A DNA stretch of 64,000 bases from an uncultured Candidatus Saccharibacteria bacterium (GCA_964612745.1 CAZTCH010000005.1:5448-69447), one strand, 5' to 3'. Shown: positions 38,800 to 42,925, counted from the first letter of the stretch. Notes: a model not told the origin generated them from the letters alone. Numbers and translations: made by a program.

Positions 38800-39075
38800 C
38801 TTCAGTTTTGGAACCGGCTCCAATCCCCGCATTGGAGCTCATTCCGGAACGGAAATCCATACCGGACAACAGCAGGCTCAATGCCCGCTGCGCAGAAACA
38901 AAGCAATTTTGTGCTCATAAACCGAGTGCAAAACAACACAAAAACAGCCTAATTCTAGAGATATGGCTGTTTTTGTTTTCTCTGGCATAACAAGACAAAA
39001 ATAGATATAATAAGCACAGGCAAATGGCGCTAAAGCAGTACGCAGCTGGTAGGGCTTCAGCGGCATATACATTGT

Positions 39076-39163
39076 GGAGAGGTCGCATAGTGGTCTAGTG
39101 CGGCGGTCTTGAAAACCGTTGTACCGAAAGGTACCGAGGGTTCGAATCCCTCTCTCTCCGCCA
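39076..39163 (+). tRNA. tRNA-Ser (anticodon TGA), long variable arm, CCA encoded
   Basis: GGAGAGGTCGCATAGTGGTCTAGTGCGGCGGTCTTGAAAACCGTTGTACCGAAAGGTACCGAGGGTTCGAATCCCTCTCTCTCCGCCA. Confidence 0.9.
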
Positions 39164-39361
39164 CAGATAGGTTGGTCAAATATGGTCAATCTATCTGTGT
39201 TAAATATAAGTCTGGTAGTTAAACCAAAAATAGTAAAGTAGGGTTTATTTAAAAAGAAGACATAATCAAAAAATATTCTAGCTGTAAAGCAACTATCTTT
39301 TGGTCTGGAAATCAAAACTAAGTAATTTTTTGTGCTTCAAAAAGTGTAAAATTTGAAATAT

Positions 39362-40408
39362 ATGGCTAACAAAAGTAAAAAAATAGAAGTTATTGATCTT
39401 TTCAGTGGAGTGGGAGGTTTAACGTATGGATTAAGAAAATCAGGATTATCAGTTTTAGCTGGTGTTGATAATGATGATTCATGCGCATATGCGTATGAGA
39501 AGAATAATAAAGCTAAATTCATCTCCGCTGATATTTCTGATTTTGATTTTAAAAAATTGAATAAAATTTACTCTAAAGATAGTGTTCGAGTGCTCGTTGG
39601 GTGCGCCCCATGTCAACCGTTTTCTTCTCATGCTTTTAAACTACGTAAAGACGCAAGTGATGTACGGTGGAATTTGCTAGATCATTTTATTCGCGGAGTC
39701 AAAGTCGTAAAACCAGACATTGTTTCAATGGAGAATGTCCGAGGTGTGACAAAGACTGATGTTTTTAAAAATTTTGTCAGCGAACTTGAAAAGCTTGGTT
39801 ATAAAGTTGATTGGAAAGTTGTATACGCTCCCAACTATGGTGTCCCTCAAAATCGTAGCCGCCTTATCCTGCTTGCTTCAAGGCTTGGTGAGATTGCGAT
39901 ACCAAAGGAAACTCATACGAAAGAAAATTATGTCACGGTCGGAGACATAATTTGTGAACTACCGAGTATTGAAGCAGGAGAAGTATCAAAGCAGGATCAA
40001 TTACACCAAGCAAAGAAACTTGAACCTATTAATAAAAAGCGGATTTTACAATCAAAGCCTGGCGGTACTTGGCGAGATTGGGATAAGAGCCTTTTACCAA
40101 ATTGCTACAAAAAAGACAGCGGGCAAACGTACACGGCTGTGTATGGGCGGATGAGATGGGAGGATGTATCACCAACCATTACTACACAATTTACCAGTTA
40201 TGGATCTGGCAGGTTCGGGCATCCAACGCAGAATCGAGCACTTTCCATCCGCGAGGGTGCGTTATTACAGACATTTCCCATTGATTACGATTTTGGGAAC
40301 TTTCCTGCCGCAAAGCTGAGTAGACACATTGGAAATGCAGTACCACCGCAATTAGGAATGGTTATTGGTAGGCAGATAAAGAAGCATCTTGAAACATATG
40401 GAAAGTGA
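39362..40408 (+). CDS. DNA (cytosine-5)-methyltransferase
   Basis: All C5-MTase motifs are present: I FSGVGG, IV GCAPCQPFS, VI MENVRG, VIII QNRSRLIL, X IGNAVPPQL. The ORF-track start at 39353 is a TTG; ATG at 39362 is more likely. The gene is AT-rich relative to its neighbours. Confidence 0.9.
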   Translation: MANKSKKIEVIDLFSGVGGLTYGLRKSGLSVLAGVDNDDSCAYAYEKNNKAKFISADISDFDFKKLNKIYSKDSVRVLVGCAPCQPFSSHAFKLRKDASDVRWNLLDHFIRGVKVVKPDIVSMENVRGVTKTDVFKNFVSELEKLGYKVDWKVVYAPNYGVPQNRSRLILLASRLGEIAIPKETHTKENYVTVGDIICELPSIEAGEVSKQDQLHQAKKLEPINKKRILQSKPGGTWRDWDKSLLPNCYKKDSGQTYTAVYGRMRWEDVSPTITTQFTSYGSGRFGHPTQNRALSIREGALLQTFPIDYDFGNFPAAKLSRHIGNAVPPQLGMVIGRQIKKHLETYGK

Positions 40409-42101
40409 AAAGTATACATTCAATATCTCACTGAGTGTTTTAAATCATCTTGGAAGGAACTTATATCGCAGTTTTCCCACTGTCTTAGGCGAAGCAATTT
40501 CTAACGCATGGGATGCAAATGCTAAAAATGTCTGGATTGAAATAGACAGAGACAATAACAGGTTCTGGATCAAAGATGATGGTGTTGGTATGGACTCCAA
40601 AGATTTTAAAGAAAAATTTTTAAAAGTTGGATATTCGAAACGAACAAGAGGAGGCATGACTTCACCAGAGCCATTTTCTCGTCCTTACATAGGAAATAAA
40701 GGCATTGGAAAGTTAGCTCTCTTATCATGCGCTGACAAAATAACAGTCATTTCAAGAAAAACAAAAGAAGACGACTACGTAGGAGGAGCAATTGACAACT
40801 CGGGACTAGATAAAGCAATACTGGATGATACATCTTCACATGACTACCCTCTTGAGCCCGCAGACGAATCGCTATTCACATCTATAAAAACCAGTCACGA
40901 CAACGGGACAATTATTTGTTTTGAAAATATCAAAGAAGGAATTCACAATACTGATGATTTTTTGAAAAAAATAATAGCACTTCATTTTCGGTTTTCTCTC
41001 GTTGATCCGAATTTCAATATTTATCTAGATGGCGAACTAGTAACACTTGAGTCGCTGAAAAGCATCGCGGAGAAAACCGAATTTGTTTGGAATATAAATG
41101 ATTGGACTGGCGATGATTATCTCGAAAAATATTGCGCTAATGTTCACAAAACTATACCTACTAAAATGTCCGACAATGTCACGGGCTTTATCGCGTCTGT
41201 TGAATTTCCAAAGGATAGAAACATACATTCGACAGGTGAAAAAGTTGGTGTGGACTTGTTTGTAAATGGGCGCGTAAGAGAAACTGACACCTTAAAACAC
41301 ATTCCTTCCGCCCAGCTCCCTGAGAACTATCTGTATGGACAGATCCACTTTAATGCACTGGATGAAGACGGGAAAGATCGGTTTATTAGTAGCCGAGAGG
41401 GCGTGCTCGCCGACGACCCCCTTTACAAAGGGTTTTTAGACGAGCTAAAAAAGACCATTCTTTCAATAATGGATCAATGGGATGATCTTCGTGATAAACG
41501 TGGCAAGGACGGAGATCTTGAAAAAGCATCCAAAATAAAAAAAGCAAAATCCTTGGTTCGGGAAGTTGCGAAAGAATACACAACTGGATCTAAAGATAAC
41601 GATGACTTTATTAGGAATCTTATCGACGACGCTGCTTATAATAGCAGTAGTTACGCCCAATGCTTTATCTCTGAAAATCTGTTACGTAGACATATTGACG
41701 GTGATGGAATGACGCCCTCTGTTTGTCTAAATAAAGAACCGAGTGGTAATACCTGCTCTGATAGGAACAAGTTAGATCAAAAAAACACCAGCTTCTGTGC
41801 ATATTGCAAAGGCGAGCGTCGCAAAAATTTATTGCAGGATGAAAAAAAGAATGCAGGAACTTCAATACAGATTAGAAGCGCCGAAGATAACCTCCTAATG
41901 TATTTGGACTATGTTGATCTCGCAAAAATTATTGATGACCGCATCCTCAAGGATGAGGACAAGCCTTATAAACCACTCAGAAATTCTGTCATGCACACTG
42001 CTAGACTAACAGAAGAAGCAAAAACAAAGCTGACATCCGTTTTTGATAATGTTGTAGCAACAGTTAAAAAACTGGTTAGCGATACCGAAGAAAAAGAATA
42101 A
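40398..42101 (+). CDS. GHKL-superfamily (HATPase_c / MORC-MutL-like) ATPase with uncharacterised C-terminal half containing a Cys4 cluster
   Basis: The Bergerat-fold boxes N (EAISNAWDANA), G1 (DDGVGMD) and G2 (GNKGIGKLA) are present. There is a C-terminal CLNKEPSGNTC...CAYC cluster. The gene overlaps the MTase stop by 11 nt. The ORF-track start at 40389 is a TTG. Confidence 0.75.
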   Translation: MESEKYTFNISLSVLNHLGRNLYRSFPTVLGEAISNAWDANAKNVWIEIDRDNNRFWIKDDGVGMDSKDFKEKFLKVGYSKRTRGGMTSPEPFSRPYIGNKGIGKLALLSCADKITVISRKTKEDDYVGGAIDNSGLDKAILDDTSSHDYPLEPADESLFTSIKTSHDNGTIICFENIKEGIHNTDDFLKKIIALHFRFSLVDPNFNIYLDGELVTLESLKSIAEKTEFVWNINDWTGDDYLEKYCANVHKTIPTKMSDNVTGFIASVEFPKDRNIHSTGEKVGVDLFVNGRVRETDTLKHIPSAQLPENYLYGQIHFNALDEDGKDRFISSREGVLADDPLYKGFLDELKKTILSIMDQWDDLRDKRGKDGDLEKASKIKKAKSLVREVAKEYTTGSKDNDDFIRNLIDDAAYNSSSYAQCFISENLLRRHIDGDGMTPSVCLNKEPSGNTCSDRNKLDQKNTSFCAYCKGERRKNLLQDEKKNAGTSIQIRSAEDNLLMYLDYVDLAKIIDDRILKDEDKPYKPLRNSVMHTARLTEEAKTKLTSVFDNVVATVKKLVSDTEEKE

Positions 42102-42451
42102 GGAGTAACCTACATGAGTAACGGGCTTGCGTCAGGAGAGAATAAACAGGCAAACGTATACAGGTTTGTTTGCACCCTCTAACAACCAGCAGCTTTTTTC
42201 CTTGCTACAAGTCACATCACGAATACCTTGAACACCGAAACAGTCGGCTCAAACTAATACCATCGGACCATGTTCAGGTAGTACGTATGATTTATATAGA
42301 CTAGAGCACAAAACGCAGATAGGTATACCTCAGAATTCCTGACAGGAAACAATCACACAATGTCCAAATAATTTAGCCAGTGACAATAACCCAGTTAAAA
42401 TCAGACTGCGCGAAAATCTGCTATACTACTAGTAGAAGTTAGATTTGTTCT

Positions 42452-42925
42452 ATGTCCGAAACAAACACAGTACATTTTGAATGGCAGGCGCACGAGTTTA
42501 AGCCGTACGAAAAGTCTATCGTATGGTACATTGGACTGTGTGTTATTGTAACACTCTTGGCGCTGTACCAGTTTTTTGTTGCAGACTACTTTGGTGCTAT
42601 TACCATGGTTATTTTGGGAGCGCTTATTATTTTCTTTGCCAAACGCAAACCAGAAATAGTACAACTCTCTCTCGACGACGAAGGAGTAGGCATTGGCGAA
42701 CTACGTTTCCCCTACCGCCACTTTAAACACTTTTGGATTGTAACCACCAAAGACCACAGAACACTAAACCTAGAAGCAAGCACTTATCTTTCGCAAACAG
42801 TTATACTAGAGCTCGAAGACCAAGACCCAGAAAAGATTCGCAAGTTTTTAGTAAAACATGTGCCAGAGTCGGAGCGAGTCATCCCTTCGTTCTCCCAGCG
42901 CATTGCTCACCGCCTGAAATTCTAA
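42452..42925 (+). CDS. Membrane protein with two TM helices and a bacterial PH-like domain
   Basis: The TMs are IVWYIGLCVIVTLLALYQFFV and ITMVILGALIIFFA, followed by a soluble ~90-aa domain. Confidence 0.45.
   Translation: MSETNTVHFEWQAHEFKPYEKSIVWYIGLCVIVTLLALYQFFVADYFGAITMVILGALIIFFAKRKPEIVQLSLDDEGVGIGELRFPYRHFKHFWIVTTKDHRTLNLEASTYLSQTVILELEDQDPEKIRKFLVKHVPESERVIPSFSQRIAHRLKF

Follow-up and report, generated by a model that had tools for sequence, protein, structure and literature searches.

In a 64,000-nucleotide (nt) stretch of DNA (the window) from an uncultured Candidatus Saccharibacteria bacterium (GCA_964612745.1, CAZTCH010000005.1:5448-69447), we analyzed a two-gene islet following a tRNA-Ser gene. 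It encodes a C5-cytosine DNA methyltransferase (MTase) and a GHKL ATPase, whose C-terminal domain is predicted to be all-helical and carries the conserved motifs of HEPN ribonucleases (RNases). It is highly probable that the islet is an acquired module derived from a restriction-modification (R-M) system. Judging from motifs and structural models, there is about an even chance that the ATPase works in this module as an ATP-driven clamp controlling a HEPN RNase. R-M systems that contain paraMORC ATPases are already known, as are HEPN domains linked to R-M. What is new here is the HgiDII-type engine and its MTase combined with a private HEPN-like effector. We found no description of such a family in the searchable literature, and no report since 2014 joining HEPN to GHKL.

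The N-terminal part of the ATPase, a protein with more than 4,400 homologues, is assigned from sequence and model to the GHKL plus S5 ATPases of MORC/paraMORC type, with its ATP-binding motifs intact. A sequence-only reading made earlier on this DNA had described a protein of 567 amino acids (aa), an 11-nt overlap with the MTase gene and the motifs EAISNAWDANA, DDGVGMD and GNKGIGKLA, and all of these are present. Across 60 homologues, residues E32, N36, D60, G62, G64, G99, K101, G102 and G104 do not vary. The AlphaFold model of the whole protein has a predicted local distance difference test score (pLDDT) of 84.5 and a predicted template modelling score of 0.77, and Foldseek against the PDB returned MORC2/3/4, Hsp90/TRAP1/GRP94 and SMCHD1 at E about 1e-12 over approximately 400-430 columns. 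Membership in MutL was rejected, since the matches were weak and confined to the N-terminus (22 bits against a 180-bit cut-off) and the MutL C-terminal Pfam domain is missing. Sensor histidine kinases were rejected likewise (kinase matches at E above 0.03, no HisKA/DHp Pfam domain), in agreement with the sequence-only reading, which had kept the ATPase apart from both groups.

The closest named relatives are restriction enzymes. The NCBIfam model NF050001 (BbrUII/HgiDII family restriction enzyme, equivalog; 659 positions, cut-off 550 bits) matches residues 9-385 at E=2.5e-84 with 284 bits, covering profile positions 1-378 of 659 only. The score is below the cut-off, so that NCBI's criterion leaves the ATPase outside this family, and two other full-length proteins of its own family (from loci L083 and L024) are likewise under it with 276 and 305 bits. 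The positive controls match positions 1-659, and each adjoins a Dcm gene: the protein of a Halobaculum plasmid (L081, 801 bits) and the 'ParaMORC3' of the E. coli P2-like phage PhiR44_1 (L082, 751 bits). In BLASTP, residues 6-369 aligned to the PhiR44_1 protein with 35% identity, and the rest of the ATPase gave no alignment. Two PADLOC REase_II models also match this N-terminal part. The pair of Dcm and GHKL genes had been taken for an uncharacterised kind of system, a claim that the NF050001 and REase_II matches do not sustain. Sequence comparison places the N-terminal approximately 370 aa and the MTase among the homologues of a named Type II R-M family, BbrUII/HgiDII (paraMORC3). R.HgiDII was described as a GHKL domain with an unassigned C-terminal domain (Orlowski and Bujnicki 2008, PMC2441816), and the paraMORC3 C-terminus was assigned to an RE-fold nuclease (Iyer et al. 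2008, PMC2292703). For M.BbrUII, PMC5829577 and PMC5867850 disagree, one giving an N6-adenine MTase and the other a 5-methylcytosine (m5C) MTase homologous to M.HgiDII.

The MTase contains the motifs FSGVGG, PCQ, ENV, QNRSR and GNAVPP, as read earlier from the sequence, and matches TIGR00675 dcm (154.7 bits) and PADLOC MTase_II/DrmMII. Its full-length identity, variable region included, is 53% to the Dcm of PhiR44_1 and 48% to that of the Halobaculum plasmid, and on this comparison it is an orthologue of the MTases that accompany BbrUII/HgiDII-family enzymes. When one genome per species was scanned, relatives of the ATPase turned up in at least 405 genomes of many bacterial phyla and some archaea; counts of loci given here refer to the best 80 loci of the ATPase family, and counts of motifs to 164 full-length family proteins. 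An orthologous C5-MTase is present at all 80 loci, directly upstream on the same strand in 77 of them with a spacing of -10 to +113 nt, and MTase identity tracks ATPase identity across the loci. The co-conservation of the pair, proposed earlier as a check of the gene neighbourhood, is thereby borne out. When all flanking open reading frames (ORFs) of these loci were clustered, Vsr (PF03852, E=1e-20) was the sole recurrent third gene. It occurs at 32 loci, at 30 of them downstream, mostly on the same strand and just after the ATPase gene, and is absent, also as a remnant, from the window and its close relatives in the candidate phyla radiation (CPR). The presence of Vsr directly downstream in about 30 of the 80 loci suggests real m5C production. 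The neighbour clusters contain no separate restriction nuclease gene recurring beside the module; with no DNase accompanying it, an RNase would be the sole effector.

Beyond the linker helix the protein departs from the BbrUII/HgiDII enzymes. Residues 336-567 modelled alone (pLDDT 87.8) are all-helical from about residue 340, with no beta strands. The motif Ex3R was found in 164/164 family proteins and is also invariant in the alignments A1 and A2; R[NDHQS]x3H was found in 163/164, with N or D after the R in all those inspected, and R[ND]x3H is kept in 18 divergent members as well as in isolates and plasmids. The earlier statement that no nuclease motif is recognisable in the protein is contradicted by this invariant pair of Ex3R and RNx3H in the C-terminal half. 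In the model, helix 524-532 ends within the Rx4H motif and is followed by a loop (533-538) and the last helix (539-566). We compared these features with the hallmarks of HEPN RNases given by Anantharaman et al. 2013 (PMC3710099), and the protein shows Rx4-6H with N/D/H after the R, the motif closing helix 3 into a loop (in the model), Ex3[KR] in the candidate helix 2, and what may be the frequent insert between helices 2 and 3 (the Cys4 element, residues 443-470). A HEPN fold of the C-terminal domain is therefore considered likely on the motifs and the model; the fold comparison is weak, and the assignment is rated likely and not proven.

A profile search of 1.84 billion representative proteins gave 243 matches, all with the same architecture of approximately 550-610 aa or fragments of it, and by this search the C-terminal domain is private to the ATPase family. 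Pfam, NCBIfam and PADLOC run on the C-terminal half alone returned no family, and Foldseek of the C-terminal model against the PDB gave nothing significant, the highest-probability match being Csm6 at 0.41. The Cys4 cluster noticed in the sequence-only reading was confirmed as C443, C453, C467 and C470. It is present in 108/164 family proteins but in only 1/48 divergent representatives; because it is missing from many members, including 47/48 of these representatives, it is a dispensable clade-specific insertion and not catalytic. A reading of Cys4 as an HNH or zinc-finger nuclease was rejected, as the cluster has no His and the insert occurs in 1/48 of the divergent representatives.

We propose the following mechanism. 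The C5-MTase, of active type by sequence, would mark the host DNA at a specific site, and host sites would be protected by m5C. The GHKL domains would dimerise on ATP binding and clamp DNA, as in MORC, MutL and Hsp90. HEPN RNases are generally dimeric. On unmethylated invading DNA, an ATP-driven change would pair two C-terminal HEPN domains so that they form a joint RNase site needing no metal, which would cleave invader transcripts or host tRNA, rRNA or mRNA, and the outcome would be transcript destruction or abortive infection instead of DNA restriction. The 11-nt overlap may couple synthesis of the effector to earlier synthesis of the MTase. From the sequence features and models we infer the HEPN fold, the RNA substrate and the gating by methylation. 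The wider proposal, namely that self/non-self discrimination by DNA methylation is read out as RNA cleavage in an R-M-like system without DNA restriction, and that this system arose from an HgiDII-type enzyme by exchange of the effector domain, is tentative, and we would give it rather less than an even chance.

Several results weigh against the RNase proposal. No Pfam model, those for HEPN families (e.g. Ymh, PF09509) included, matched the C-terminal domain of any of 26 family members at E up to 5, and the C-terminal profile searched against PDB sequences gave spurious matches only, at E above 0.5. HEPN families are mutually very divergent (PMC3710099), so that a missing profile match does not exclude the HEPN fold. 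The closest characterised relatives, HgiDII and BbrUII, are DNA endonucleases, which makes DNA cleavage the default expectation for the operon, and the published PrrC-type model presumes an accompanying DNase, which is absent at this module. The window has 8 copies of the HgiDII site GTCGAC where 7.1 are expected, so it shows no depletion that would favour an active site-specific system.

The main rival explanation, which we consider unlikely although ancestry speaks for it, is an ordinary Type II-like restriction enzyme that cuts unmethylated DNA at the MTase site as HgiDII and BbrUII do. In this case the C-terminal helices would be a novel DNase (a HEPN-like fold repurposed), or a recognition or dimerisation domain with the catalytic residues elsewhere. 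Homology ties both the N-terminal 370 aa and the partner MTase to a family of real restriction enzymes, the operon has the same layout with the MTase first, PADLOC would file the pair as RM Type II, and co-occurrence with Vsr is typical of m5C R-M systems. The motifs argue against it. The C-terminal region with D...ExK of BbrUII/HgiDII gave no alignment past residue 369 of the window protein; what replaces it is all-helical. The PhiR44_1 ParaMORC3 has such a pattern ('...RIDIAF...IIEMKRP', confirmed by no Pfam model) and nothing comparable is present in the window protein, in which no PD-(D/E)xK, HNH, GIY-YIG or PLD motif was found. The HEPN RNase signature coincides exactly with the most constrained residues, the Cys4 element can be dispensed with, and to our knowledge no HEPN domain has been shown to cleave DNA.

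The MTase site may resemble the GTCGAC of HgiDII, going by sequence homology, and in the 80 pooled host loci GTCGAC is depleted (0.69x, z = -4.55; second most depleted 6-mer palindrome), which is in line with DNA restriction; however, several other palindromes are depleted equally, and GTCGAC is depleted neither in the close loci nor in the window. As a separate observation, no 4-mer palindrome outside the islet (1-39163 and 42331-64000) is depleted more strongly than GGCC (69 observed against 121 expected, z = -4.75), and CTAG and GATC are also low there. This may reflect the pressure of another R-M system, present or past.

A selfish addiction module of toxin-antitoxin type, in which methylation restrains a HEPN toxin and a cell that has lost the islet dies once its methylation is diluted, seems quite improbable. 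It would account for the spread and persistence of so small an islet, and would agree with the overlapping arrangement that puts the MTase first and with a mobile unit of only two genes that occurs on plasmids (pBM153) and in a variety of unrelated settings, but the loci often adjoin other R-M genes (the Paceibacterota locus L009; neighbour clusters), which is typical of defence islands. For R-M systems, addiction and defence are not mutually exclusive. Least probable by far is a repair or epigenetic accessory role, with the GHKL protein as a MutL-like matchmaker for Vsr repair of m5C deamination (MutL is established to stimulate Vsr in E. coli; discussed in PMC2292703) or as a MORC-like methylation-reading compaction factor: Vsr lies directly downstream in about 40% of the loci and the fold matches MORC ATPases, but 60% of the loci, including the window, have no Vsr, a matchmaker role leaves the invariant HEPN-type signature unexplained, the closest characterised relatives are restriction enzymes and not repair factors, and the patchy mobile distribution fits conflict systems.

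The clamp-controlled RNase can be compared with several known systems. The BbrUII/HgiDII systems and the window pair share the two-gene composition of C5-MTase and GHKL plus S5 ATPase, and both are mobile and patchy. The homology of the proteins ends at residue ~369, where BbrUII/HgiDII members continue with the D...ExK region of approximately 280 aa and the window protein instead with a helical domain of approximately 200 aa carrying Ex3R and RNx3H. In Escherichia phage PhiR44_1 (PV340563.1, L082:3992-7040), the BbrUII/HgiDII-family ParaMORC3 and Dcm genes have portal gene Q on one side and replication gene A on the other; this P2-like coliphage thus has a complete GHKL-type R-M system as cargo.

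Among HEPN proteins, the nearest comparison is Ymh (PF09509), which is fused to paraMORC in R-M neighbourhoods and was predicted to act like PrrC/RloC (PMC3710099). The present proposal extends that prediction. There, as is predicted for the window protein, a GHKL domain precedes a C-terminal HEPN domain with Rx4-6H beside DNA methylase genes. The window domain differs in not being Ymh or matching any Pfam family, and its N-terminus is of paraMORC3/HgiDII type; since the module lacks both a DNase and an hsdR-type subunit, its RNase would not be a second line of defence. In PrrC (with EcoprrI) and RloC an N-terminal NTPase regulates a C-terminal HEPN RNase with a link to R-M, as proposed here (PMC3710099), but the NTPase is ABC/Rad50-like and not GHKL, PrrC sits in and is silenced by a complete Type Ic R-M system, and no sequence similarity between PrrC/RloC and the window protein was detected. 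VcSduA (Shedu I-D, GHKL plus DUF4263 PD-(D/E)xK) is anti-phage in Vibrio cholerae and needs both its ATPase and nuclease residues (PMC12137116). It resembles the window protein in placing an N-terminal GHKL domain over a C-terminal nuclease-type effector in one polypeptide; it is described as a single-protein system, with no partner MTase mentioned, and its effector is a DNase-type PD-(D/E)xK domain, not HEPN-like. Sacsin (Hsp90-like ATPase repeats with a C-terminal HEPN domain), a chaperone-related protein of giant size from eukaryotes, has no partner MTase and resembles the window protein in architecture only.

If the RNase effector is true, the family represents a natural swap of the R-M output in which methylation self-marking and the ATPase engine are kept: HgiDII-type proteins with a DNase-type region and the window family with a HEPN domain would share the same N-terminal module and MTase. 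Sensing of DNA modification could then license an RNA-targeting abortive response without DNA cleavage. The family also bears on the role of GHKL/MORC-type ATPases in R-M, proposed since 2008. Current pipelines file it as Type II restriction enzyme or generic 'ATP-binding protein'; because PADLOC and NCBIfam match the N-terminal two-thirds only, automatic calls of 'Type II restriction enzyme' may mislabel the activity, and HgiDII is no safe guide to the specificity. Patescibacteria/CPR, a group about whose defences little is known, commonly carry the family. Homologues on which experiments could be done come from cultured organisms or plasmids, namely Paracoccus tegillarcae (pBM153), Polynucleobacter sp. 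78F-HAINBA and Perlabentimonas gracilis.

Horizontal acquisition of the pair into a tRNA-flank hotspot is well supported. We compared the window with related genomes (L088, L089 and L090) found via RecG in a larger protein database. The gene order RsmE, ECF sigma factor, a gene of approximately 365 aa, tRNA-Ser(tga), a 157-aa gene, tRNA-Arg(ccg), RecG and RadA is common to the window, L088 and L089. The tRNA-Ser(tga) and the 157-aa gene are separated by 194 nt in L088, i.e. the site is empty; in the window the same slot is a gap of 3,288 nt with the MTase-ATPase pair, and in L089 it is occupied by an NTP_transf_2/Polbeta-type nucleotidyltransferase gene (L089:3448-4345). The empty site in L088 and the different cargo in L089 identify the pair as an inserted islet in a cargo hotspot, confirming the earlier proposal of a horizontally acquired islet by the synteny comparison suggested with it. 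Copies of the module in metagenome-assembled genomes (MAGs) of Saccharibacteria, Moraniibacteriota and Paceibacterota are 81-90% identical to that of the window, which greatly exceeds any similarity of housekeeping genes. The host belongs to a sparsely sampled lineage of Patescibacteria: the best relative of its RecG anywhere is 57% identical, the named RecG relatives being Patescibacteria. A RecG-based metagenome scan gave relatives at 40-50% identity only, with no synteny. No flanking gene or intergenic DNA is common to the window and the 80 homologous loci. Several CPR copies are preceded, at a distance of 0.5-3.5 kb, by a tRNA gene on the same strand, whose identity varies (Asn, Ile, Pro, Ser-GGA or Ser-TGA).

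The composition of the islet is in agreement with its foreign origin as far as G+C content (GC) is concerned. The turn to AT-rich DNA after tRNA-Ser(TGA), seen by eye in the sequence-only reading, was confirmed: GC is 0.28-0.42 over 39000-42600 against about 0.47-0.51 in the flanks. Compared with the 41 other ORFs of the window (0.473 +/- 0.025), the MTase gene (0.399, z = -3.0) and the ATPase gene (0.387, z = -3.5) are low, and their GC at third codon positions (0.313 and 0.345) is under that of all 41. The difference in codon usage claimed with it holds for the third positions but not for the synonymous-codon likelihood score, which is within the normal range of the window ORFs (z = +0.2 for the MTase gene and +0.9 for the ATPase gene).

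Alignment of the junctions with L088 and L089 places the borders. Similarity is lost exactly at the CCA end of the tRNA and returns at a TG(C/G)TATACTA box at about 42418-42427, so the islet extends from 39164 to a point between 42102 and about 42415. As the sequence-only reading had stated, the islet contains no integrase ORF, and there is no duplicated tRNA 3' end. The 9-mer CAGATAGGT, put forward earlier as a possible mark of the island ends, has its first copy at 39164-39172 as given then; the second is at 42316-42324, and not at 42318-42326 (expected count 0.18; 1/100 shuffles reaches 2). The first copy is part of one arm of a hairpin directly after the tRNA, which offers another reason for its presence. 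As an att site CAGATAGGT is weak and unproven, with two copies only, the first inside the hairpin, the repeat beginning after the CCA and the tRNA end not duplicated. The description of the islet as tRNA-targeted goes too far: the 3' flank of the tRNA is a cargo hotspot, but the usual traces of such targeting are limited to this weak 9-mer repeat.

The hairpin, which takes in the last two bases of tRNA-Ser, was not called in a terminator scan, the T-run being missing, and nothing corresponds to it in the junctions of L088 and L089 when these are aligned; it is possibly a stem involved in processing the tRNA 3' end or in termination, which might also protect the islet against read-through from the tRNA. 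In the leader, a consensus scan found no sigma-70-like promoter, and the leader resembles none of the other 80 loci. The 350-nt tail contains no remnant of Vsr or another gene. The 157-aa gene on the right flank had been labelled a PH-domain gene, for which Pfam gives no support: there is no match at threshold, and the best is DUF6232 at E=0.038. The features are listed in Table 1.

Table 1. Features of the islet and its borders in the window (positions counted from the first letter of the stretch).
Feature	Position	Strand	Basis or remark
tRNA-Ser(TGA)	39076-39163	+	ARAGORN; Rfam tRNA 56.6 bits; CCA encoded; left border, host side
Hairpin 3' of the tRNA	39162-39199	+	arms 39162-39174 and 39187-39199, 13 nt each, 12-nt loop, 92% complementary
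AT-rich leader of the islet	39164-39361	+	composition profile, GC about 0.28-0.36
C5-cytosine DNA methyltransferase, 348 aa	39362-40408	+	ATG 39362; Pfam DNA_methylase E=1.3e-62
GHKL-ATPase/HEPN-like protein, predicted effector, 567 aa	40398-42101	+	ATG 40398; AlphaFold model pLDDT 84.5
GHKL (Bergerat) and S5-like transducer domain, residues 1 to ~335	40398-41402	+	HATPase_c_3 E=4.9e-18
N-box EAISNAWDANA	40491-40523	+	translation
Linker helix 'WD.LR', residues 336-369	41403-41504	+	ends the region in common with BbrUII/HgiDII enzymes
All-helical C-terminal domain, predicted HEPN, residues ~370-567	41505-42098	+	private to the protein family
Ex3[KR] motif, E426-N-L-L-R430, in helix 399-435 (candidate HEPN helix 2)	41673-41687	+	translation
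Cys4 insert, C443, C453, C467, C470	41724-41807	+	probable zinc ribbon between candidate HEPN helices 2 and 3
Rx4H motif, R528-N-S-V-M-H533, polar residue after R	41979-41996	+	translation
Non-coding 3' tail, right border somewhere inside	42102-42415	+	no ORF of at least 60 aa
Conserved 157-aa gene, right flank on host side	42452-42925	+	same length and position in L088, L089 and L090

Two further observations concern the neighbourhood of this tRNA in other genomes. In L088, a gene for a 91-aa GIY-YIG protein (L088:5677-6026) has its end just within the 5' end of tRNA-Ser(tga). In the Paceibacterota MAG locus L009 (L009:5355-9698), the same module is also found downstream of tRNA-Ser(tga), and between the tRNA and the Dcm gene lies a second R-M-like pair, composed of a 272-aa DPPY-motif MTase gene and a 206-aa gene, which together with the module forms a small defence islet.

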